In this document: positions 9,891 to 26,546 of the stretch, one piece after another
Numbering within the stretch: the stretch's first letter is position 1
How the letters are laid out: the number at the start of each line of letters is the position of its first letter
Assembly (NCBI GenBank): GCA_035650735.1
Contig: DASRGZ010000056.1
Coordinates: 1-64,000, forward strand
Direction: 5' to 3'
From: Chthonomonadaceae bacterium
GTDB lineage: Bacteria > Armatimonadota > Chthonomonadetes > Chthonomonadales > Chthonomonadaceae
Length of the DNA: 64,000 bases
Translations under genes and position numbers: made by a program
Notes under the pieces: generated by a model
The model's database searches: none
What the model was told of the DNA's origin: nothing
What the model saw: the letters and a program-made list of their open reading frames with translations, nothing else

Positions 9891-10826
9891 TCAGTCTATG
9901 CCGTCCTGAGTCGCCTTGTACTCTTCGACGGCCTTGCAGGTGCGCAGCCAGACATTGTTGGGCGGGTTCTCGTAGCCTTTCCAGGCGTAGGGGTCGGTTC
10001 CGGCCACTGGAATGATGCAGCGGCGGTCGGCGTTGGCCGGACGCTCGCCCTCCTTCAGGCTCCAGGGCAGCAGCGACCAGGCGTTCATGTAGTGATTGAC
10101 CAGGACGCGCCGGTAGATATTGCTGCGGTTCTTGCGGGAGCGGTGGAGCAGGTAGCCGTTAAAGAACACGACCGTGCCCGTTTTCACCTCCACCGGAACC
10201 TCTGCTGATTCGTCGAACCCGTAGCTTTCCTGGGCGAAGTCGAACTCTTCCGGGTTGTTATGGTCGCGCTGCGGGTAGAGATAGCCCATGCGATGCGAGC
10301 CGGGAAGCACCCACAGGCAGCCGTTCTCGAGGGTGGCGTCGTCCATCGCGATCCAGCCTCCGATCAGAGAGCGGTCGCGCGTCGGGATATAGATCTCGTC
10401 CTGGTGCCACGCCTGCCCCTGGAAGCCGGGCGGCTTGACGAAGAGCATGGACTGCATGCACTTGACGCTGCCATCCCAATAGGGCAGGTGCGCCGCCGTG
10501 ATCTGGCTGAGCACGCCGCAGATAAGCGGGTGCCGGACGTACTTCTCCATCACCGGGCTGATGTAGTGCGGCTGGTGGATGCAGAGGATGCCGCGCAGCA
10601 CCTCGTCGTCGGTGAGGTCTTGCGGCAGCGGCTGCAAGGTCTCGCAAGGGTAGCCCCCGCGCGCTATAGTCACGGTGTCCCGGCGTAGCTCCTCGATCTC
10701 CTCCGGCCCGACCAGATCGGGCACGACCAGATACCCGTTCTCGACAAAGAACTGTACCTGTTCCTCGGAGACGACTTTCGGGACATCTACGCGCGCCTCT
10801 GTGCATGGGCTTGCCATCATAGTCAT
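9891..10826 (-). CDS. Phytanoyl-CoA dioxygenase (PhyH)-family 2OG-Fe(II) enzyme
   Basis: WHQD, NGCLWVLPGSH, LLHRSRKNRS; GGAGA RBS. Confidence 0.9.
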   Translation of the reverse strand: MTMMASPCTEARVDVPKVVSEEQVQFFVENGYLVVPDLVGPEEIEELRRDTVTIARGGYPCETLQPLPQDLTDDEVLRGILCIHQPHYISPVMEKYVRHPLICGVLSQITAAHLPYWDGSVKCMQSMLFVKPPGFQGQAWHQDEIYIPTRDRSLIGGWIAMDDATLENGCLWVLPGSHRMGYLYPQRDHNNPEEFDFAQESYGFDESAEVPVEVKTGTVVFFNGYLLHRSRKNRSNIYRRVLVNHYMNAWSLLPWSLKEGERPANADRRCIIPVAGTDPYAWKGYENPPNNVWLRTCKAVEEYKATQDGID

Positions 10827-10931
10827 GATTCGATTTCTCCTGTATTCCTAGATACTCCCAGCCGTGCAACTCCCTCTCAAGCGGAGTGTCACCGATAGGA
10901 AGCGCCAACACCGTTGGGAGGGATTATCTAA

Positions 10932-11032
10932 CTCAAGTTGCTACCTTGCCTCTTCGAGAAGGCAAACGGTGATGCAAAAGCCGGTTTCCAGAGCGATTCT
11001 CTCTCAAACGTGTTCCTAGGTAGCAACTTGGG
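10932..11032. mobile_element. 101-bp MITE, copy 1 (IS4-family ISPepr1-like ends)
   Basis: TIRs CYCAAGTTGCTACCT; perfect 8-bp flanking duplication TTATCTAA; identical inverted copy at 29343-29443. Confidence 0.9.
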
Positions 11033-11233
11033 TTATCTAATCTTGAATGCGCCGCACCTAGAGCGTGGGATGCACTTGGGTCCTCTTGAGGAGATAGGCC
11101 AGCCGCTCATTAGAGGCTTGGTGCTCGCTTTTTAGCGAGCCCAAAGCGGTCATCAGCCTCCAAGTCCTCTCTCGAAGCAGGCAAAAAAGGGCATAACACC
11201 CTCTACGGACGCGGCGGCCTTTTCGCGGATTGG

Positions 11234-12481
11234 CTACACCCGGTCCGCAAGAGAACGTCTCTCTTCGCTATCGGCGACGACCGCCCTCTGGAGGCTTTCC
11301 GGCGTCTCCGGGGCCGCGTCGGGGAAGGCGACCTCCTGGAAGGTGCGTGTGGCGGCGGATTCTTTGGCCTTCAGGCACATCAGCACGCTGAGCAGCCCCG
11401 CGCTCAAAGGCGAAACCGACTTCCGTTCGCCGCGCACCACACGCACGAAGTTATCGGCTAACACCGTATCGCCGCCGCCGTGCGATAGCGACGAGGTCTG
11501 CATCTTAATCGTCTCCACGCGCGGCGTATGATGCATGAAGACCTTGACCTCATCGGTGTACCAGTCGAACTCCACCGTGCCCTTGTAGCCTAGCAGCGTC
11601 GCGCCGCGCTTCCCAGCCCCTTTGCGCGCAAAGAAGTTCTGGCTGTAGTTGACGTGCATCCCCGTCTCATACTGGATGATGGCGCTGCCGGAATCCTCGT
11701 TGCCCGTGTCAGTAGCGAAGGCGCACAGCAGCCCGGTATCCTGTACTCGGTCACGCTCGCCTTTGGAGAAGTGATAGTGGAACGGGCTTTCCAGGCAGGT
11801 ATCGTGCTCGGTACAGTCGTCGCAGCGGAGGCCGGCGGGATGGCTGCCCTTCATGATCTGCTTGGAGGTCATCGCGCATATCCAGCGCGGCTGAATGCCG
11901 ATCAGGTAGTTGATGTAATCAAAATCGTGGGTCGCCTTTTGCAGAAAGAGGCCCTGCGTCTCGTTCTCGTCCCGATACCAGCCCTGGTAATAGACCCAGC
12001 CGTAGGGGACATTGTTCCATGCCTGGACATGCTCGACCGTGCCGATCTTGGCCGAGTCGATGATCTCTTTCGCCAACTGCACCAGCGGAGTCACGCGCAA
12101 GGGGAACGAGACGACGACCTCGCTGGTGCTCCTAGCAGCGGCGGCGCGCAGGGCCAGCAGGTCGTGCATATTGGTAGCGATGGGCTTTTCGAGGAAGAGC
12201 GGCAGGTTCCGCTGCAACACCTTGATCGCCATGCGGGCGTGCAGCGAGCAGCGCGTCCCGATCATCACCCCGTCGAGCTTTTCGGTATCCAGCATCGCCT
12301 CCGGGTCGGTGTAGAAGGCCACTTTAGAGTCATCCTGCCCGCGATCCCGCATCCGCTTACGGATTTCGTCGTTGCGCACGTCCGTGATCGCGACGATCTC
12401 CGTCCCCTGGCGGAGCCGCTGCATCAACTCGATCACGCCCTGTATCCGCCCGCCATAACCGATGACGCCGATTCTTAGCAT
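11234..12481 (-). CDS. Gfo/Idh/MocA-family oxidoreductase
   Basis: RIGVIGYGGR, LFLEKP, KATHDFD, HGGGD. Confidence 0.9.
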   Translation of the reverse strand: MLRIGVIGYGGRIQGVIELMQRLRQGTEIVAITDVRNDEIRKRMRDRGQDDSKVAFYTDPEAMLDTEKLDGVMIGTRCSLHARMAIKVLQRNLPLFLEKPIATNMHDLLALRAAAARSTSEVVVSFPLRVTPLVQLAKEIIDSAKIGTVEHVQAWNNVPYGWVYYQGWYRDENETQGLFLQKATHDFDYINYLIGIQPRWICAMTSKQIMKGSHPAGLRCDDCTEHDTCLESPFHYHFSKGERDRVQDTGLLCAFATDTGNEDSGSAIIQYETGMHVNYSQNFFARKGAGKRGATLLGYKGTVEFDWYTDEVKVFMHHTPRVETIKMQTSSLSHGGGDTVLADNFVRVVRGERKSVSPLSAGLLSVLMCLKAKESAATRTFQEVAFPDAAPETPESLQRAVVADSEERRSLADRV

Positions 12482-12560
12482 AAGATTTAGCCTCTTTCTA
12501 TAAAGATAACCTCTAAAGATGATGTGGAAGCATATGAGACAGGCGCTCCGGCTGCCGGCA

Positions 12561-13325
12561 CTACCTAGCCCCGGAAAGGGGAAATGGTTGAGCGCGTTCG
12601 CCGAAATGCTTCTCCCTGTCCTCGCCGCGCACCAGGACGGCGTGCCAGGTCTTGCCCATCGAGTTCAGGGCGACAGGCCGTACCGAAGTGGGAACGTACC
12701 GCAGCGTCAGGCCGCAGCGCCGCCGATGGGAGCGATTGGGCAGGCTGCCGTGAATGAGCGCCCCGTCGTGAATGGAGACCTCTCCGGCGCGCAGAATGAG
12801 GTCGGTGGCGCGGTTTTCCTCTTCCGGCGTGACCGGTACCTCTTGATTGATGCTCAGGAGGTTGCCCTGCGCCTGCGCTTTGCCATGCTCCCGGACGCCA
12901 CCGCAATGCGTTCCCGGCAACACGCGCATACAGCCGTTCTCGCAGTCGCTATCGTCCACGGCGTACCAGACGGTGAGCGCAGAGGGCGGTTCCAGTCCCC
13001 AATAGGTCACGTCCTGGTGCCAGGCGACAAATTTGGCGTCCTGCCCGTACTTGCAGAAGAAGTGGGTGGCAAGCAGCAGGATATTCGGACCGATCAGGCT
13101 CTCCACGCAGTCCAGGACTTCCGGGCGCGTCGCCAACTCCCAGATGAAAGGCTGGTCGAAGTGGCGGTCCAGCAGCCCGATCTGCGCCTTCTCGCGTCCT
13201 TCCCTGGCCTCCAGCTCGTCGAAGAGAGCGCGGTAGCGCGCGGCCTCCGCCTCCTCCACAACGCGGATACCGGAAAGAAACCCTTCGCGTTGATAGGCCT
13301 GTATCTGTTGTTCCGTCAGCAGCAT
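12561..13325 (-). CDS. PhyH-family dioxygenase
   Basis: AWHQD, NGCMRVLPGTH, IHGSLPNRS; GGAGG RBS. Confidence 0.9.
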   Translation of the reverse strand: MLLTEQQIQAYQREGFLSGIRVVEEAEAARYRALFDELEAREGREKAQIGLLDRHFDQPFIWELATRPEVLDCVESLIGPNILLLATHFFCKYGQDAKFVAWHQDVTYWGLEPPSALTVWYAVDDSDCENGCMRVLPGTHCGGVREHGKAQAQGNLLSINQEVPVTPEEENRATDLILRAGEVSIHDGALIHGSLPNRSHRRRCGLTLRYVPTSVRPVALNSMGKTWHAVLVRGEDREKHFGERAQPFPLSGAR

Positions 13326-13376
13326 TGTAAATTCTCCTCCCAGCGTATCTCCCTACCAGCGTTCCTTCCGTTCTGG

Positions 13377-13488
13377 GTAGCGGGCGAATAAATTCGCTGT
13401 AACAAAGGCACGAAGTCGGCCTTCGCTGACTCCACCCCAACCCGCGCAGGCGGGTTTTGGGCTTTTGTTGTTGCGGCTTGAGCCGCCC
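13377..13488. repeat. GTAG-type REP-like palindrome cluster
   Basis: gtagcgggcgaataaattcgc, agtcggccttcgctgact, aacccgcgcaggcgggtt and gcggcttgagccgc hairpins. Confidence 0.6.
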
Positions 13489-13694
13489 GAAAGGAAAACG
13501 TCTTGCTCTTACACTTCGTGTTTGGTGAGTTCGACACCGGCACCCCCATTCCTGCTTCTTCTGTGGCGGCGCCCGTCAAATCCGCTTCGGAGACAAAGTG
13601 GGCAGGAAAACGCCGCCCGCATGAGAATAGAGAGCTAGACTTTCTAAGGCCTCCATGTTGCGACGAAACCGAGCGCAGGAGGATGTTGCAAACG

Positions 13695-14417
13695 ATGGAC
13701 CAGGAGATGTATCGGCGCTATGCCGCCAACGGCTACCATGTCGAGCGCGGCGTGTTTACCGCAGAAGAAGTCGGGCAGATGCTTGCGCACTACATGGCGA
13801 TGCGCGCTGAAGGTCCGCATCCCGGCGACTCGGCAGGCGTACCGGCCCATAGCCGCCCAGACGCGCCCGATCCCTGGAAGCAGTACCCACGCATGATCCA
13901 GATGCACCACTGGGACGCGCTCACCCGCCAGTGGATGTCCGATCCTCGCCTGACGGATGTGGTCGCCGCACTGATGGGCCAGCGTCCGAAGCTCATTCAA
14001 ACGATGGTCTACTTCAAGCCGCCCGGCGGGCGCGGGCAGAGCTTTCATCAAGACAACATCTACCTGCGGACTACGCCACTGCTGGCCGCCTGGGTCGCAT
14101 TGGATCGGGCGGACGCGGAGAACGGCGCGATGGAGATGGTGCGCGGCAGCCATCTGCTCGGCTTGCTGCCCCTCCGGGAAGCGGATACCGATATTTCCGT
14201 GACCGAGATCGAAACGGTGATTCCTTCCTACCTGCCGCGCGACCTGATGGCGCTGGAACCGGGCGATGCCGTTCTCTTCGGCGGCCTGACGATTCACGGC
14301 TCGCTGCCTAACCGCTCCCGCGACCGTTTTCGCCGCGCCTTCATCTGCCACTACGCGGGCGCAGAAGCCTATCCTATCGTCGCGCCTTCGCTGTCTCTGG
14401 ATGCCGAGGCAAAGTAG
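13695..14417 (+). CDS. PhyH-family dioxygenase
   Basis: FHQDN, NGAMEMVRGSH, IHGSLPNRS. Start is 13683-13695, after an AGGAGG RBS. Confidence 0.88.
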   Translation: MDQEMYRRYAANGYHVERGVFTAEEVGQMLAHYMAMRAEGPHPGDSAGVPAHSRPDAPDPWKQYPRMIQMHHWDALTRQWMSDPRLTDVVAALMGQRPKLIQTMVYFKPPGGRGQSFHQDNIYLRTTPLLAAWVALDRADAENGAMEMVRGSHLLGLLPLREADTDISVTEIETVIPSYLPRDLMALEPGDAVLFGGLTIHGSLPNRSRDRFRRAFICHYAGAEAYPIVAPSLSLDAEAK

Positions 14418-14521: not shown

Positions 14522-15529
14522 TTGGCCTCACTGCATGATCATCCTGCCGAGCGGCAGCGCGGTCTGGACCACAGGTTCTTTCATCTGGTGCGCTGGGAGA
14601 TGCGCCTGCTGCATGGGCGCAGGCGGGTCGCCGGATGGATCGCGCTGGGCCTGATCGGCGCGGCATCCGCTGTTGTCATCTGGTGGGCCGCCAGCCAGCC
14701 GGAGGAGGTTCCGGAGAAGGTCTCGGACCTGGCGCGGATGGCGCACTTCGATATGATTGCCGTTCTGCTTACCACACCGATACGTGACGATGTCGCCAAT
14801 CTCGCTCAGATGACCTTCGGCTACTCCCTGTTGCGCTTCGCGGCCTATGCGCTCATTGCCTTCTGCAAGGTGACCCTGCCGGCAATAGCGGCTGGCTCCA
14901 TCGCCAGTGACCGGCGGGCCGGGCGGCTGCAAGACCTCCAGATGACTCCCATGACGGCGACCGCGCTCTATCTGGCGACGGCGCTGGCGGCAGCCCTACC
15001 CTATCTGCTGCTCGGCACAACACTGCTGGCGCTGTTCCTCGGCGTGGTCGTGGGCGAGTTCGTCCCCGTCAGCGAAGCAGGGCGGCTATTCCTGGAAGCG
15101 GAAGGACAGGTGCTCATGACGGCGTTCGTGGCGATCACCTGCTCGGCGCTCTTCGGCTCACCCTGGGTCGCCCGCATCGCCGCCTATTTTCTGCTCTGGC
15201 TGGCGCTGCCGCTCGTCTGGCTTGGCATCCTGGAGGCAATCCTGGCGGGCAGCTTCTGGGGAATACAAATCAGCAATGAATACCGAATGAGTCCGGGCAA
15301 GGAGGGATTCGGGGCATTCGTTGCAGCGCAGGCCCTTTTCACCGGCATCGTCTGTCTGCTGGCGGTGTTTCTCGGCGTGGCGCGCTTGCAGCCGCACGGA
15401 TTTCGGAACTGGATGCGTACCGGCTTCCAGAATCTCCTGGGTGGGATGGCCGGTGCATTCACACGGTTGCGGAGCGTGATAGGAAGGGAGACGCGCGATG
15501 CACGTCATGCTGGTAGGCCCGGAGTTTGA
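14522..15529 (+). CDS. ABC-2-type permease-like membrane protein
   Basis: About 6 TM segments; SIASDRRAGRLQDLQMTP resembles the ABC-2 permease cytoplasmic motif. Overlaps the next gene. Confidence 0.6.
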   Translation: MASLHDHPAERQRGLDHRFFHLVRWEMRLLHGRRRVAGWIALGLIGAASAVVIWWAASQPEEVPEKVSDLARMAHFDMIAVLLTTPIRDDVANLAQMTFGYSLLRFAAYALIAFCKVTLPAIAAGSIASDRRAGRLQDLQMTPMTATALYLATALAAALPYLLLGTTLLALFLGVVVGEFVPVSEAGRLFLEAEGQVLMTAFVAITCSALFGSPWVARIAAYFLLWLALPLVWLGILEAILAGSFWGIQISNEYRMSPGKEGFGAFVAAQALFTGIVCLLAVFLGVARLQPHGFRNWMRTGFQNLLGGMAGAFTRLRSVIGRETRDARHAGRPGV

Positions 15530-17675
15530 GGAGAACCTTTCGCTGCGCTATCTGGCGGCGGCGTTACGGCAGGCCGGGCATACCGCCGGCCTGGCCCGCT
15601 TCGACTCGCCGGAGTATGCCGAAGGCGTGGTACAGCAGGTCTTGCGCACGAATCCAGGGCTGGTCGGCCTCTCGATGGTGTTTCAGGTGCGGGCGCGGGA
15701 GTTCTACGCGCTGGCGCGGGCGCTGCGTCAGGCGGGTTATACGGGGCACATCACGGCGGGCGGTCACTTCGCCACCTTTGTCTGTGAACCCATGCTCAAG
15801 GAGGTGCCGGAACTGGATTCGATTGTCCGACAGGAGGGCGAGGAGACCCTGGTGGAGCTGGTGGAGGCGATTGAGCGCGGGGCAAGTCTTGACGAGCTGG
15901 CCCGGATTCCCGGCATGGCAGTGCGCGATGCAGATGGCGCGGTCGTGCTGGCCCCGCCGCGCCATCAGGCCCGGCATCTGGATACGCTCCCCTTCCCCAT
16001 CCGGGACGCCGTTCCTGAGCGGCATCTAGGCGTGCCGACCGCCTATCTGGTCGGCAGCCGGGGCTGCTACGCCGACTGTGAATACTGCTGCATCTTCGCC
16101 TGGCACGAGGCGGCAGTCGGCAAACGCTACCGGATGCGCACGGTCGCCAACATCGCCGACGAGATGGCCTGGCTCTATCACGAGCGCGGCGTTCGCTTCT
16201 TCGTCTTCCACGACGACAACTTCTTCCTGCCGACCGCCGCCGGCAGCCGCAAGCGATTCGAGGCGCTGCATGCCGAAATACGCCAGCGCGGACTGAACGA
16301 CATCGGCCTGATGCTCAAGCTGCGTCCCAACGACTGCGACCACGAGAACCTGCTGATCTTGAAAGACATCGGCCTGCTGCGGGCGTTCGTCGGCATCGAG
16401 AACGCCAGCCAGCGGCAACTGCGCACCCTGGGCCGCGATTCGACGGTCGAGGATGTGCAGGCGTGCCTGCGAATGCTGCGCGAACTGGACATCTACGCCA
16501 CGTACAACATCCTCCTGTTCGACCCCTACACCACGCTGGACGATGTCGCTCTCAATCTCCGTTTCCTCCGGCAGAACCTGTTCACTCCTTTCAACTGGTG
16601 CAAGGTCGAGCCGTATGCCGGAACGGAGCTGGAGAAGCGGTACGCCCGCGAAGGGCGGCTGCGCGGCGACTACCTGGGCTGGGATTACGCGATGGACGAT
16701 CCGCGCGCCCGCCTGCTCTACGACCTGCTGCTGCCCGCCTTCTACTACCGCAACTACGACTACTACGGCCTGGCGAACCTGAACATCGGCCTGGGCTATC
16801 ACCGCCAACTGCTCAAGCACTTCTACCCCGACGGCTGCACGCCCGACCTCTGCGATCGGGTGCAGGCGCTTATCGAGACCATCAACGCCAACACGCTCGA
16901 CTTACTGGAGCGGGCCACTCTGTTCGCGCGCGACGTGGATCTAGCGAACCGGGCCGAGATCGAACGCTTCGGCGAGCAGCTTAAACGCGATTCCTTCCAT
17001 GGGCAGCACCGATTGAGCGCCCGGATAGAGAGCGTCCTGCGCGAGATCGAACAGGCGGCAGGCGTGCGTCAGGAAGCGCGGGTACATTCCCCGGTCGCCT
17101 TCGTGCCGCTGAGACCTACCCCCCTGGCCCGCCGCAGCCTCCTGGGAGTCTTAGCGAGTGGACTGTTGTGGCTGCTCGCCGGATGCCGCCATGTTCCGTC
17201 AGGCCAGCCGCCACAGGCGCCCCAGAATCCAACTCCGCCTTCTGGCATACCTGCGGTCAAAATCACCACGCCGCAGGGCGTGCTGCGTGTGGCCCCGGGC
17301 TCCCCGGAGACGGTCGCCGCCTGGGAACACTTCACGCTGGAGGCCGTCCTGCTGCCGGAGGAGGCGCAGGTCCTCGGCGAGCCGCGCGTGACCGCCAGCG
17401 GTGGCGAGATAAAGCGCGTGCAGGCCGAGCCGGGCAGCCGCATGTTACGCATCGAGTACCGGCCCGGCGGAGGCAGCCGCCGCCTTGACCCGAACGAGAC
17501 CGTCTCGGTGGCGTGGACGGTACGCGGCCCGGAGGGCGATACCGTTATCCTGACGCGGGCGTTTGTGCATGTCAATGAGGACGGCAGTTACAGCTTCGGC
17601 TACGAGACGCCGCGCCCGACCATCGCGGAGATGGCCGCGCCGCCCATCTATCGCGGGCCCAAGCCGGGGAGTTGA
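15498..17675 (+). CDS. Cobalamin-binding radical SAM protein with C-terminal Tat-lipoprotein-like extension
   Basis: B12 domain (LVGLS, ITAGGHFAT, RQEGE), SRGCYADCEYC, FHDDNF, VGIEN; residues ~545-563 read RRSLLGVLASGLLWLLAGC. Confidence 0.9.
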   Translation: MHVMLVGPEFEENLSLRYLAAALRQAGHTAGLARFDSPEYAEGVVQQVLRTNPGLVGLSMVFQVRAREFYALARALRQAGYTGHITAGGHFATFVCEPMLKEVPELDSIVRQEGEETLVELVEAIERGASLDELARIPGMAVRDADGAVVLAPPRHQARHLDTLPFPIRDAVPERHLGVPTAYLVGSRGCYADCEYCCIFAWHEAAVGKRYRMRTVANIADEMAWLYHERGVRFFVFHDDNFFLPTAAGSRKRFEALHAEIRQRGLNDIGLMLKLRPNDCDHENLLILKDIGLLRAFVGIENASQRQLRTLGRDSTVEDVQACLRMLRELDIYATYNILLFDPYTTLDDVALNLRFLRQNLFTPFNWCKVEPYAGTELEKRYAREGRLRGDYLGWDYAMDDPRARLLYDLLLPAFYYRNYDYYGLANLNIGLGYHRQLLKHFYPDGCTPDLCDRVQALIETINANTLDLLERATLFARDVDLANRAEIERFGEQLKRDSFHGQHRLSARIESVLREIEQAAGVRQEARVHSPVAFVPLRPTPLARRSLLGVLASGLLWLLAGCRHVPSGQPPQAPQNPTPPSGIPAVKITTPQGVLRVAPGSPETVAAWEHFTLEAVLLPEEAQVLGEPRVTASGGEIKRVQAEPGSRMLRIEYRPGGGSRRLDPNETVSVAWTVRGPEGDTVILTRAFVHVNEDGSYSFGYETPRPTIAEMAAPPIYRGPKPGS

Positions 17676-19741
17676 TGCCCATGCGCTCCCGTATGCGCCT
17701 TCTCTGGATACTGGGCTTGGTGGCCGTCCTTGCGGCCATAGGCGCGGTCTTCGCCTATTACGAGCGGACGCGCCCCCATCTGGCCGAGCGCAACCAGGCT
17801 GAGCGCGCTGCACAGGTCGCCGGGCAGATCAGGTCCCTGAGCAGTGAGGAAGGCCTGACTCCCGCGCCTACGCCCCCTGTAGAGAAGCTGGGGCCGCGCG
17901 CGACGATCGCGATGGCGCGCGAGTTCCTGCTCGACTACCCGACGGCCTCGGCGACACAGGTACGTATGCCTCTGGCGCTGGCGGTGGCCGCCTTACATGA
18001 CCCGGACATGGCGCTGGTCGGCAGCGAAGTGGAGCAGGCTGCCGCCGATATTCTAACGCATCTTGGCCCCAACCGGCCTCCGACGCAGCAGGATTTTGTC
18101 AGGGCAGGCTTTCCCTCCCAACTGCAATGGACTCCCGCTCTCTATCTTACCGATGTGGATGGCGATGGAAGCGCGGACGTGGTGTTTGTCTGTCCGGGGG
18201 AGCGGGAACAGAGTGTCTGCTGCCTGTTCCGCCACACGCCGCGCGGTTGGATCAGGCATCGCATCGGTCTGGGTCTTCCCGTGCTGGGCCTGTGGGTCTT
18301 CGACATTACTCCGAACGGCCCGAAGGCACTCCTACTTGCCAGCCTGGCCGACAATAGCTATGATCCGAATCTATTCGTGGATGTCTTCGCCTGGCAGAAC
18401 GGGCGGCTCAACAGCGTGCTCTCCACCAGAATCGAGCACGGCTTCCAGCTAGACCATAAGGATGTAGACGGCGATGGATCGCAGGAAATCCGCCTCTTCG
18501 GCAGCAAGGGCGGGATAAGATACAACGAGAAAGCGCGTCAGACGGAAATCTACAAATGGCACGGCAGCGAGTACGTTTTGTCTAAGGTGGAAGACGCTCC
18601 GGCGCGCTGGACCGGCTTTGACCGGCTGGCCGAAGGGAAGCGTCTGCTGGCGGCCTATCAGCTGCCGGAAGCGATCCAGACTCTGCTCACGGCCACACGC
18701 TGGAAGTCTGTCAAACGGGGCAACTACGACGAATTTAGCGATTATGGCGGTCGTCAGGAGGCATGGTACTACCTGGGACTGTGCTATGCCCTGACGGGAA
18801 ATCATGCCGGGGCGGTCGCAGCCATGAACGAGGTAAAGCGGCAAGGCCAGGCAGGAAGTGAAATCCTGAACGCCTGGGCGCAGAAATTCCTCGCAGCCTG
18901 TCTGCATCCCGGCGACCTGCCTCAAGCCCTGGAAACCATCGGCCAGGTATTTCGGTCGCTCGAATTGGCGCTGCATACCAGCCGCCCGAGCATAACACCC
19001 CGCGACCTCCTTGCCGCCGCAGGCATCACGCCCGACGCTTATCAGGAGACAGACCTGACCGGCGACGGCACGACGGAAGGGCTGGCGCGATTCCACTGGC
19101 AGGGCGGGAGCGCCGTCGTTGCCTTGCAGCGGAATGGGCAGGGCGTGCCGCCCTGGACGCTCTGGGTGCTGGCCTATGCCCTGACGGACAAGCCACCCGA
19201 TCAGTTCTATCCCCAGGAAGCCGAAGACTGGTTCTACCTGCCGCAAGCTCCCGCGCTCTCGCTCTACCCGGTCGCAAGCACGGTCAATCTGAGCGGCGTC
19301 CGACCACGCGCCGGAACAATGCCCCAAGTCGCCATCACGTACCGGCAGGGCAACACGCAGGCCGAGGGGATCGTGGCGTGGCAGGGAGGACGTTTCGTCG
19401 CCGTGCAGCCCGTGCCGAAGCCGAACGAGAACCTGGAAGTTGAGCTGGCCCGCATCGAAACGGCGCTGTTCGAGCGCCGAGATTATCCGGAGGTTCTCGA
19501 CCAACTGGCCGCCTTTGAAGGCCGCGTGCGCGGCTCCTCGCTGCCTACAGAGGACAAAACCGACCTGCTGTTGGAAGCCTTCTATCACGAGGCGCTGTGC
19601 TATCGCAAGCTGGGCCAGTCGCGCCGAGCCAGCGTGACCTATGCGGCGCTCTGGCGCGGCTATCCGGACAGCGATTGGGCAAAATTGGCGAAACGTTGGC
19701 TAGCGTTCACAAGGGGCAGGGAAACCGCGCCCGGAAAGTGA
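17675..19741 (+). CDS. Membrane-anchored exported protein with FG-GAP/VCBS-like loops and TPR-like repeats
   Basis: N-terminal TM; DVDGDG twice and DLTGDG; EAWYYLGLCY and C-terminal YPDSDWA TPR-like segments; TGATG coupling to the rSAM gene. Confidence 0.7.
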   Translation: MPMRSRMRLLWILGLVAVLAAIGAVFAYYERTRPHLAERNQAERAAQVAGQIRSLSSEEGLTPAPTPPVEKLGPRATIAMAREFLLDYPTASATQVRMPLALAVAALHDPDMALVGSEVEQAAADILTHLGPNRPPTQQDFVRAGFPSQLQWTPALYLTDVDGDGSADVVFVCPGEREQSVCCLFRHTPRGWIRHRIGLGLPVLGLWVFDITPNGPKALLLASLADNSYDPNLFVDVFAWQNGRLNSVLSTRIEHGFQLDHKDVDGDGSQEIRLFGSKGGIRYNEKARQTEIYKWHGSEYVLSKVEDAPARWTGFDRLAEGKRLLAAYQLPEAIQTLLTATRWKSVKRGNYDEFSDYGGRQEAWYYLGLCYALTGNHAGAVAAMNEVKRQGQAGSEILNAWAQKFLAACLHPGDLPQALETIGQVFRSLELALHTSRPSITPRDLLAAAGITPDAYQETDLTGDGTTEGLARFHWQGGSAVVALQRNGQGVPPWTLWVLAYALTDKPPDQFYPQEAEDWFYLPQAPALSLYPVASTVNLSGVRPRAGTMPQVAITYRQGNTQAEGIVAWQGGRFVAVQPVPKPNENLEVELARIETALFERRDYPEVLDQLAAFEGRVRGSSLPTEDKTDLLLEAFYHEALCYRKLGQSRRASVTYAALWRGYPDSDWAKLAKRWLAFTRGRETAPGK

Positions 19742-24039: not shown

Positions 24040-25230
24040 TCATACGTCCGTCCCTTCTATCTCTTCCTCCGCTTCCGGCAATTCCGCATCTACGGACAAA
24101 TCTTCCGGAGATACGCCAATCAAGAAATCTTGAATTCGGATGTCAGCCAGGGCGCTCTCTAGGAAACCTTCGATCTGAGCGTCGGGCATCGTTTGCAGTT
24201 CATGCTTGAATCCAAGCTGATGGCCCAGGCGCTGCGCAAGATCGCGGGGCCAATACCGCATACTCATCTGAATGATCTCTGCCCCAATGCGCTTTGCGGC
24301 TTCCTCCGTCTTTCCGGTTTTAGGAAGGCGATCTATAATGATAAAGGTTGTCGAATGATGCGCGCCTCCGGCTAATTCTATCTCGCGAGCGTAGCGCGAT
24401 AACTTATCTTTCGATATTTCGGGATTTCCGGGACCAATGAAACCAATATCGAAACGCGCTAACTTGCCGGGTTGCAGTAGAAGAGTTGCATCGCTCTCTC
24501 GTTCATTAGAACTATCTGCCAACCAGAATACCTTATGCGTTCTTGTGTTCGTTCTTGGATCTACTCGCCGAAAGCCAAGCACGGCAAGCACCGAACCGAG
24601 TACCAATCTTTCAAACAGCTTGCCATAAATGGATTTGTCGGAGCCTCGGAGTGTAAGAGTCAAACTGCCTATCGCCGTTGTCAGGCGCGTGATACCTTCC
24701 CAATCTAATTTTGCACGACGGCCATCCGGTGATTCGACAAAGCCCAACGTCAACTGGAGGTCGCCTATCTCGGTCTGGCATTGTACTGCCGCTTCCCGAA
24801 CAGCGGTTTCAAAGTCGGTAAGGTAGTCCTGAACGTCGGGGTTATTTCTCAGAACGTTCTGAACCGATTTACCGGTCAGGCCGAGGAGCCATTGGGCAGG
24901 CCAGATACTTGCGTTATCGTTCCTGTTTGCCGTTTTAATCTGCTCGACCGCCATGGCGGACAGGCGGCTTGTAAAGTCCTCAAAATGGAGGCAGCCCTGA
25001 GCAAACAGGGCTGCCATGGCCCCGCTCGCCTGCGCGATACGCCTGCGCGTAAGCGGTTCCGTCTGTGTGCGAACGTTTTCGCCCATCATCACGCCAAGAA
25101 CCACGCGACGTGCGGCCTCTACACCGATACGCTCCAAGAACTCTTTGCCGCCGCCCGTGAGTAAGAGGCGGCTATTTTGCGGAAAGAGGTCGTTGAGCGT
25201 GAGCGGATGGGACGGGGAACTCTCAGACAT
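24040..25230 (-). CDS. CfrBI-family type II restriction endonuclease
   Basis: [51 protein letters not shown]; overlaps the MTase stop codon. Confidence 0.75.
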
Positions 25231-26440
25231 CGTAGGTTTCTTGGGTCTCGAAAAGCCGGAGGACCGGCGGCGCCGGAGGGCAGTTGATATAAAGGATGTC
25301 TTCAGCCGCTTTCCCCAGCCAGGAAGGAGCCGCTTCCTGAATCATCCGGATATAGTCGGGGTTAATTTCAAAAAGCACGAAGCGCCTTCCAAGCTGGGAA
25401 GCGGCGGCCCCGACAGTGCCCGAACCCGCAAAGGGGTCCATGATAACATCCCCTTTGAAGGAGTAGTATTGGATCACTTTCTGGGCCAGTTCAAGGGGAA
25501 AGGCCGCAGGATGGGCAGAGTTCGTATTCGGCTGAATGCGCCAGACGTTCGTGCGTTCGTAGTCATCGCCAATTTTGGAGGCGGCAATGACATCCGGTTC
25601 AGGGTGGTTACGAATGTGCCAATCAATCAACAGATCGGTTCTTTTGCGATAGACCAGCACATATTCGGTGACAGGGACGGCCTTATATTGGAGGGGATTC
25701 CGGTCGGCGGCAAAGCGGCGTCCCCGCCCGGTCGCCCAACCCGCTCCTTCTGGCTTCACCCAGATAATGTCGTCAATAAAATCGTAACCCTCTTCGATAA
25801 AAATGCGGTGCAGGTCAAAAGGAACGGCAATACGTTTGGAGGACTGGTTTCTGCTGGCGCGACGCAATAGAACTGGAGCGGTATTGATCACGAAAAAGCG
25901 GCCCTCGTTCAAGACACGGTGCGCACGCTTGATAACTTGCCGCATCTTAAAAAGATACTGCTCATACTGTTCATAATCACTGTATTCAGGGCGTGCATTG
26001 AAATAAGGAGGCGAGGTAAAGATAAGATCTACCGAGGCGGCAGGCATTTCCTCAATTAGCTCTACACAGTCTCCCTGCCCGACCGTGTTCCTGAGGGAAG
26101 AGATCGGATAGTCTGCCTTCTGGTGTCGCTTTTTATTGGCCTGAACTTCATCTTTCTTCAGGAGGCGGGCTTCCAGCATTTCCGGCTTGGTCGTCTTCTC
26201 ATGAAGAATAGCGGTGGTGTAGGCATCAATAACCACTTCTCCAATCTTGGTCGTTCCGTCTTCCTTACAGAGGGGAACACGCCATACATGATAGCGGTCG
26301 TCAATCTCCGGTAGGCCGAACCGAATAACCTGACAGAGTTCTATTTCATAGAGCCAATCGGCGGCTATTTTCTTTGCCTGGGCGACGGTTGTGACTAGAT
26401 ATTTTCTTGACTCAGCAACAAGGGGCTTGTTACGCGGCAC
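25223..26440 (-). CDS. N4-cytosine (beta-class) DNA methyltransferase
   Basis: FTSPPY before HPAAFP and [11 protein letters not shown] start at 26440, 8 nt after AAGGAGG. Confidence 0.92.
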
Positions 26441-26546
26441 AGTACCTTCCTCCTTAGAAGTACTTTGCATTACGCGGCAAGCCCCTCTTTTTCCTGCCAA
26501 TTTTCTATTTTTACACGCCCGTTTGCTGACTGCAAGCAGCAAGGAT

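Follow-up and report, generated by a model that had tools for sequence, protein, structure and literature searches.

A cobalamin-dependent radical SAM enzyme fused through an internal lipoprotein signal to its own probable substrate

The window analysed here, a stretch of 64,000 nucleotides from a Chthonomonadaceae bacterium (contig DASRGZ010000056.1 of assembly GCA_035650735.1, positions 1 to 64,000), carries an open reading frame (ORF) in which a cobalamin (B12)-dependent radical S-adenosylmethionine (SAM) enzyme continues, through an internal signal peptide, into a lipoprotein-like cargo with a conserved tail motif. The architecture of this fused ORF is solid and surprising; its mechanism we infer. 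The enzyme probably modifies its own lipoprotein cargo, presumably by C-methylation, before the cargo is exported, lipidated and released by LspA. This reading, drawn from sequence comparison and structure models, fits the conserved fusion, the conserved tail motif and the existence of split forms, and lends partial support to the central proposal of an original prediction made from the letters of the window. The cargo is probably the enzyme's own substrate because many other bacteria encode the lipoprotein as the next gene.

The fused gene and its homologues

The translation of the fused ORF is stop-free over 725 residues and matches two Pfam domains only, B12-binding (PF02310, residues 12-122, 58.6 bits against a cut-off of 32.1) and Radical_SAM (PF04055, residues 187-345, 50.1 bits against 29.5); CYADCEYC, from residue 190, provides the cluster cysteines C190, C194 and C197 (CxxxCxxC). 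Homology shows residues 1-521 to be a class B cobalamin radical SAM enzyme, a class whose members mostly lack a known substrate. In an AlphaFold model built on a 21-row alignment this core is ordered through residue 521; a low-confidence stretch follows (524-589), of which 548-560 form a helix, then a beta domain (593-701) and a tail that is again of low confidence. RRSLL begins at residue 545, the sole hydrophobic 19-mer at or above threshold at 548 and PTIAEMAAPP at 707, while LAGC spans 560-563. The original prediction had the enzyme running without a stop into RRSLL, LAGC and a cargo, on which the ORF, its coordinates and its homologues agree; the beta domain that it described is present, at about 110 residues and not the 130 or so that it gave.

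Thirteen full-length close homologues (57-73% identity, among the best 120 of 1353 matches) all keep the lipobox cysteine and EMAAPP, and R546, G562 and C563 are invariant in the alignment of 21 close sequences; the fusion is thus conserved among close relatives of the protein. That chance read-through or an assembly error joined two genes here is extremely improbable, and we reject it on the strength of hundreds of fused homologues, the invariant cysteine and identical contigs across the junction. In its favour, a search of 40 relatives turned up no close homologue (the best match, with E 8.5e-22, is at paralogue level), nor was the cargo found in 300 genomes of the phylum, bar four weak matches to its signal and linker part; we take these results to mean that the distribution is patchy. 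No stop or indel appears at the junction in four sequencing runs examined (of 11), each of which has one contig across it with no differing letter or gap; these four runs may themselves be the source of the window, and it is the homologues that provide independent support.

Beyond the closest relatives, 116 proteins from the same best 120 matches were scored: 87 have motif-bearing tails (71 of Asp type and 16 of Glu type), 26 end soon after the core and 3 are of other kinds. A hydrophobic region (h-region) followed by a cysteine, our heuristic proxy for a lipobox in place of SignalP, is present in 84 of the 87 motif-tailed proteins. Another search, started from a second clade, brought in 119 more proteins, and a Glu motif was found in 98 of the 117 scored, against 70 of 2340 shuffled tails; its consensus is H-M-C/A/F-E-M-A-P-x-P, and 88 of the 98 tails pass the lipobox proxy. 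Among new representatives at 50% identity a signal-like segment occurs in 73 of the 80 with long tails, a further 44 being short or partial. Placed on a tree of 152 rows, the 95 fused and 43 short forms imply 11 switches between the two states, of which at least 6 are forced; shuffled labels imply 36. A first tree had hinted that fusion was ancestral, an idea we dropped since the 152-row tree gives no direction.

The family is large and has no name in NCBIfam, where the fused ORF matches 23 families, every one below its curated cut-off (the best, BchE, with 126 of the 481 bits needed; HpnR and HpnJ are also far below theirs, and no cut-off is reached for ApyD, ArsL, CUAEP or MgmA-type families either), and three homologues likewise reach none. 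Judging by record titles, its members come from lineages that include Myxococcota, Gemmatimonadota, Acidobacteria, Planctomycetota and Fibrobacter. Apparent frameshifts in family genes, either of which may be an assembly error, occur at two loci: at L065 (3859-6154) the enzyme is split at about residue 280, and at L023 (7167-11597) the frame shifts just past the first cargo motif.

Split forms, the cargo motif and its recognition

The original prediction had envisaged that the cargo might elsewhere be an adjacent gene, and such two-gene forms do exist. The loci examined, at least 36 from genomes and the top 80 of at least 328 from metagenomes, held 101 family ORFs; 12 could not be scored, leaving 89, some of them duplicates. 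The motif, in Asp-Pro form, lies in a separate ORF starting beside the enzyme's stop codon at 52 of these, and it is carried in a fused cargo at 12 (two being the window's own sequence), or 64 of 89 together. As controls, 35 distant B12-radical SAM ORFs gave no case and 1023 other ORFs gave 19. The two genes overlap by 4 nt at the stop codon in 22 of the 52 split pairs, and 30 of the 52 partners pass the lipobox proxy, some others having a signal of the Ala-x-Ala type. The enzyme of a split pair is without an anchor and the partner holds both signal and motif. A cultured strain, Labilithrix luteola DSM 27648 (locus L035), has a split pair. Apart from the cargo, no neighbour family recurs widely across the loci.

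In 13 split pairs the enzyme has an E-x-L-P-x-P element at its C-terminus, in 27 the partner has it at its N-terminus, and in none do both (compare L068 with L099), which looks as if the gene boundary had shifted around a shared element. Docking of this element in the manner of a leader was considered and set aside: the tail that bears it has a predicted local distance difference test (pLDDT) score below 50 in an AlphaFold model of one such enzyme, and a complex model left it unplaced. At three loci (L113:8001-9791, L123:333-2111 and L125:3-1652) the next ORF encodes a partner that has no obvious signal peptide and starts PPPEPAH (one ends NPQPLPP); such partners may represent a kind of substrate that stays in the cytoplasm, acted on by enzymes of this family.

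No part of the cargo is more conserved than the tail motif. Among the 21 close proteins EMAAPP lies near the C-terminus in all 14 beta-domain forms, and the remaining 7 lack that domain and have the signal with proline-rich copies of EMAPxP or DPxPP. Many cargos in the wider family are a signal with up to 7 copies of the motif and no folded domain, and so resemble multi-core precursors. The variants seen (DPLPP, EMAPxP, EYAAPP, EAAPPP, DPVPP, VVDPLPPP) share one constant feature, a single Asp or Glu followed by prolines; the AEMA tail singled out by the original prediction is therefore right as to a conserved tail motif, but not as to AEMA itself being its centre. The beta domain has no Pfam or NCBIfam match, whole-model fold searches with it were filled by enzyme matches, and the Atlas gave one unnamed lead (0.76). 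A six-frame scan of the genome returned the tail of the fused ORF as its only AEMAAPP-like C-terminal match; among 2226 signal-like ORFs of the genome, screened for substrates in trans, 16 loosely match the motif and none is like that tail. For a stand-alone cargo homologue, proteins below 398 aa gave five matches, all of them the window's own sequence or apparent fragments.

The nearest folds to the enzyme are OxsB (Z 22.4, root-mean-square deviation (rmsd) 5.2, 471 aligned), the protein methylase MgmA (Z 22.2, rmsd 4.0, 378 aligned) and AprD4 (Z 22.0, rmsd 3.4, 404 aligned). MgmA (9ccb), OxsB (5ul2), TsrM (6wte), CysS (9n1b) and TokK (7kdx) all combine a B12 domain, a CxxxCxxC barrel and a C-terminal domain, as here, although identity to solved structures does not exceed about 21%, and MgmA, BotRMT1-3 and PoyB/C methylate residues in polypeptides. 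According to the accessible parts of PMC11285071 and PMC10849626, class B enzymes acting on peptides that are made by ribosomes and modified post-translationally (RiPPs) methylate Phe, Val, Pro, Ile and Met. If the motif is the substrate, C-methylation would be the likeliest chemistry, and a rather probable one.

Within the barrel, K274 is family-specific: 119 of the 120 family rows have it, and it does not rank with the four most frequent residues in 30 outgroup rows. The AlphaFold model puts it on a strand of the barrel, in register with R276 and position 272, and it could serve to anchor the motif's carboxylate. At position 272 every Asp-type group has Val or Ile, and two Glu-type clades have Met or Gln; the rule that Val, Ile or Leu at 272 with Cys, Ala or Ser at 335 denotes the Asp type fits 81 of the 82 labelled rows of a diverse set of 119 (37 being unlabelled). 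That a pocket formed by 272 and 335 tracks the motif type is offered as a lead only. T335 by itself was strong as a marker of the Glu motif in a first set and was abandoned because the second clade is mixed (T in 59, C in 23 and S in 12 of 98).

A possible means of holding the cargo comes from a model of one split pair, L036, comprising the enzyme and the first 63 residues of its partner, with SAM and 4Fe-4S as ligands and 28-row alignments for which partners were picked for having both motifs. The complex scored 0.87 and the best of three controls 0.00; a score of 0.87 is reached by 116 of 157 solved pairs and 2 of 215 mismatched ones, a calibration that is rough here since the model used its own alignments and ligands. 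Runs share at least 28% of contacts with a partner pLDDT of at least 46, and the confident interface lays partner residues 20-38 (the n-region and the first part of the h-region) against residues 38-42, 69-77, 100-105 and 389-393 of the enzyme, so that the models dock the n-region helix of the signal peptide on the B12 domain in the manner of a leader. A remembered complex is unlikely because no solved structure above about 21% identity was found. The equivalent surface in the fused ORF is P38-E42, R67-A75, P98-V103 and G390-G394, where the acidic E68 and D/E102 and the GDY at 390-392 are kept in most of 120 family rows. In spliceases a leader helix binds and activates the radical SAM enzyme (PMC11414181), and by analogy the RRSLL helix of the fused ORF might act as a leader in the same way. 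The original prediction had looked instead to the tail docking in the barrel; the AlphaFold model of the fused ORF shows no such docking.

The motif might also escape modification altogether, being an arm that binds a metal or a different substrate, or else a sorting tag, with the enzyme's target lying elsewhere; we regard this as distinctly unlikely. His, Cys and Met abound in H-M-C-E-M, the consensus of the second clade, and NCBIfam includes B12-radical SAM enzymes, matched below cut-off, that are named for Cys-containing tails (ArsL RCCLKC, CUAEP/CCAEP), tails with a putative role as binding arms. Yet neither VVDPLPPP nor TIAEMAAPP contains His or Cys, the motif lies behind an export signal and would be parted from the enzyme once exported, and motif type tracks two barrel positions, this last being only the lead described above.

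Proposed mechanism, export and known systems

In proposing how the fused protein works, we start from the class B core, which needs SAM, [4Fe-4S] and cobalamin and so would work in the cytoplasm. The basic, amphipathic start of the signal peptide would behave as a RiPP leader and bind the B12 domain on its outer face, as modelled in the split relative, which would hold the cargo and may mask the signal. The barrel would then act, in cis or across a dimer, on I-A-E711-M712-A-A-P-P, with Glu711, anchored by K274, as the likeliest site and the next residue (Met here, Pro in the Asp type) as the second. The cargo would afterwards leave via the internal signal, in this subclade plausibly by twin-arginine translocation (Tat) because the twin arginines accompany a folded domain; Lgt would diacylglycerylate Cys563 and LspA would cut, giving a lipoprotein of 163 aa, while the enzyme would stay inside, attached to what remains of the signal.

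A number of observations weigh against this scheme. Of the 89 scored loci, 25 fail the strict motif pattern, although several of these carry motif variants on inspection and one is just the front half of the broken L065 gene. The top folds tie between a methylase (MgmA) and non-methylases. The L036 model gives no confident placement of the Asp-Pro motif, and the pair modelled is a relative whose docking surface is only partly conserved in the fused ORF, positions 67-75 varying; the AlphaFold pLDDT is below 50 for the signal and tail of the fused ORF itself. The 272/335 rule was framed post hoc and has three independent pairs behind it (two changing the same way, none the opposite way, p 0.5), and by mutual information position 272 ranks fifth, four columns scoring higher. 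The five substrate classes for Tat that are set out in the accessible part of PMC13673990 do not include an internal, cleaved lipobox. Finally, the genome, which is 97.6% complete, yielded no CobS, so that cobamide would need salvage, which fits the presence there of a methionine-synthase-type cap domain and other B12-radical SAM genes. Four B12-radical SAM genes distant from the family of the fused ORF are clustered in genome G000 (contig C182, 44799-56501), with similar clusters in G001 and G019.

The genome encodes TatC, LspA and Lgt, and LAGC, which in the fused ORF follows the h-region of an internal signal and whose cysteine is kept in 21 of 21 close proteins, is the commonest lipobox among the N-terminal signal-like ORFs of that genome (25 of 165). 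ARRSLL forms a twin-arginine motif at the boundary of n-region and h-region. An RR-x-x-hydrophobic pattern is kept in 23 of 25 proteins of the fused ORF's own clade against 37 of 213 other fused homologues; the twin-arginine signal of the original prediction is therefore retained for this clade and not for the family, and Tat use would be a subclade trait at most. The arginines of the n-region may, as the docking model suggests, serve enzyme binding. As described in the part of PMC13673990 available, class V Tat substrates (FecR) have a folded cytoplasmic domain, an internal RR and an exported C-terminal domain and are uncleaved, and class II substrates have RR with a lipobox, though N-terminally; the fused ORF would combine the two.

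A different order of events would keep the same modification but free the cargo before export, by a cytoplasmic protease cutting in the Arg/Pro linker or by an internal start such as GTG at V523, so that the signal is N-terminal in use. The linker is indeed disordered in the AlphaFold model and variable in the alignment, a 203-aa database gene call on a 3.1-kb contig begins at the V523 codon, and it is clear from the split forms that a cargo whose signal is N-terminal works. We nevertheless judge this unlikely: no Shine-Dalgarno-like sequence precedes an in-frame start codon at any locus of the fused ORF's clade, six fused loci (L022, L023, L028, L100, L129, L135) have no in-frame ATG, GTG or TTG between core end and h-region, Met occurs in that interval in only 27 of 84 fused proteins, and no protease gene recurs among neighbour families across the loci. 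On the first two grounds an internal start finds no support as a general explanation, while the GTG at V523 could still serve in the fused ORF.

The signal could instead be an uncleaved anchor of the FecR-like class V Tat kind, with the tethered enzyme acting on another substrate, a lipid or metabolite, and the outer domain being a sensor or scaffold. The topology is known (PMC13673990, in the part available), BchE and the hopanoid enzymes HpnR and HpnJ are among the best NCBIfam matches, all far below cut-off, and the permease and tetratricopeptide repeat (TPR) neighbours described below suggest an envelope complex. A merely tethered enzyme, an alternative that the original prediction had put forward, is nevertheless less likely because the split forms carry the signal on the partner gene, together with the motif, and leave the enzyme without an anchor; moreover, the cysteine after the h-region is invariant in the clade and present in 84 of 87 fused proteins, and no lipid or metabolite pathway gene recurs across the loci. 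We consider such an anchor quite improbable.

Modification of the cargo followed by lipidation has parallels among characterised systems. The DAG-RiPPs (DybA/DybH, MelA; PMC13056109) start as signal-bearing precursors with a short conserved motif, on which an enzyme acts in the cytoplasm before lipidation, much as we propose; some precursors are peptides and others are as large as proteins of 30-40 kDa, and they have a lipoprotein or signal peptidase I signal, both of which also occur among the split partners here. DAG-RiPPs, however, use a separately encoded MNIO, a CPxCGxG motif and an N-terminal signal, whereas the present family has a B12 radical SAM enzyme and an Asp/Glu-centred motif, and most of its forms are fused, with the signal about 545 residues in. 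The fused ORF thus shares a lipoprotein-type signal, though internal, and a conserved motif co-encoded with the enzyme, and has neither MNIO nor CPxCGxG. The words 'radical', 'cobalamin' and 'fused' are absent from the main text of PMC13056109.

In borosins I-III (OphMA; PMC11285071) and split borosins a methyltransferase is N-terminal to its own substrate, modifies itself and is cleaved, and fused and split forms coexist, as they do here, where the tail as substrate is the conjectural part. Borosins differ in having a non-radical, SAM-dependent backbone N-methyltransferase, dedicated proteases and small peptides, with no lipoprotein signal, B12 or iron-sulphur cluster; the fused ORF has no backbone alpha-N-methyltransferase domain, its domains being B12-binding and Radical_SAM and its folds class B. 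By analogy, the family would work like a DAG-RiPP with a borosin-type fusion, while having the enzyme of neither.

The spliceotide enzymes PlpX and RhaX likewise pair a radical SAM enzyme with a partner bearing a short motif, with a leader helix that binds and activates (PMC11414181); their target is XYG, whereas the cargo motif here is EMAAPP, with YG before the motif in only some split partners. Spliceotide radical SAM enzymes are of SPASM type without a B12 domain, and the Bacteroidetes pairs TIGR04133/TIGR04134 consist of a radical SAM enzyme and a lipoprotein partner; NCBIfam scans of the fused ORF and its homologues matched neither TIGR04133 nor TIGR04134. We know of no class B radical SAM enzyme fused to an exported substrate. 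Our literature search, of mostly open-access coverage, found no description of this B12-radical SAM and lipoprotein system, although supplements on DAG-RiPPs could list other enzyme families.

More tentatively, and at somewhat less than even chances, we suggest that the fused ORF belongs to a widespread and so far undescribed class of self-modifying pre-lipoproteins. In these the cobalamin radical enzyme would grip the n-region helix of its own internal signal, which would act as a leader and also keep export locked; the enzyme would place a new modification at the level of carbon on a motif of the Asp/Glu kind (the barrel pocket at 272 and 335 being tuned to Asp or Glu type), and the housekeeping pathway for lipoproteins would then sever it. 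The proteins of this subclade would define a further Tat class, with an internal, cleaved and lipidated RR signal behind a 520-residue enzyme. If this is true, the logic of RiPP lipoproteins extends from MNIOs to B12 radical SAM enzymes, a modification not known before would be carried by surface proteins of many lineages, Lgt, LspA and perhaps, here, Tat can process a signal some 545 residues from the N-terminus, and a signal peptide can double as an enzyme-binding leader. With enzyme and likely substrate in one gene, and a split pair in a cultured strain (L035), the chemistry is directly testable.

Neighbouring genes and other features of the window

The features of the locus are collected in Table 1. 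As the original prediction had it, the fused ORF overlaps an ABC-2-like permease gene, by 32 nt, and is coupled through TGATG to a gene for a membrane-anchored FG-GAP/TPR protein. The permease is identified by its Atlas features and structure; it has no significant Pfam match, and no ATPase gene adjoins it. The downstream protein is 47% and 36% identical to the products of the downstream genes of L060 and L065. The permease/enzyme/TPR gene order of the proposed operon is seen at this locus, L060 and L065, which have both neighbours, and the permease is also found at L059, where the contig ends within the enzyme gene; L061 and L062 have neither. The two genes are accessory and linked to the beta-domain subclade only, in which the lipoprotein product probably works with the proteins they encode. 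At L059 (589-1731) a GH18-family gene lies between permease and enzyme. A promoter scan was at chance level (1 found, 0.9 expected); terminator-like matches numbered 9 against 4.4 expected, none of them between the ends of the three genes.

Table 1. Features of the fused gene and its two neighbours, in window coordinates
Feature	Position	Strand	Basis
ABC-2-type permease-like membrane protein (335 aa)	14522..15529	+	Atlas features and structure match PF12679-type clusters; 5 hydrophobic segments
Fused gene: B12-dependent radical SAM enzyme, internal signal and putative lipoprotein cargo (725 aa)	15498..17675	+	Pfam, homologues, AlphaFold
Cobalamin-binding domain, aa 12-122	15531..15863	+	PF02310 above cut-off; outer face is the predicted dock for the signal-peptide helix (modelled in split relative)
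Radical SAM barrel, aa 187-345; C190-x3-C194-x2-C197, K274, M272, T335	16056..16532	+	Pfam, family alignments
Enzyme C-terminal helical domain, about aa 402-521	16701..17060	+	AlphaFold secondary structure
Signal peptide within the protein: RRSLL, h-region and LAGC lipobox (Cys563)	17130..17186	+	Motif positions, invariant Cys, hydrophobicity
Pro-rich cargo linker, aa 564-592	17187..17273	+	Translation, AlphaFold
All-beta cargo domain, aa 593-701	17274..17600	+	AlphaFold; no Pfam or NCBIfam match
Putative modified motif PTIAEMAAPP, aa 707-716 (E711, M712)	17616..17645	+	EMAAPP in 14/14 beta-domain forms
Membrane-anchored TPR/FG-GAP-like protein (689 aa)	17672..19741	+	TPR_6 above cut-off; FG-GAP below; one N-terminal transmembrane segment

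Just upstream of the permease gene, three PhyH-family dioxygenase genes occupy 4.5 kb on both strands (9891-14417); none appears in the gene maps of related loci inspected. Further downstream, a lower-GC stretch on the reverse strand (24040-26542) encodes a CfrBI-type restriction endonuclease (PF09516) and an N6/N4 DNA methylase (PF01555), by their domain matches apparently an ordinary restriction-modification insert, and adjoins an ORF that we take to be ruvB.

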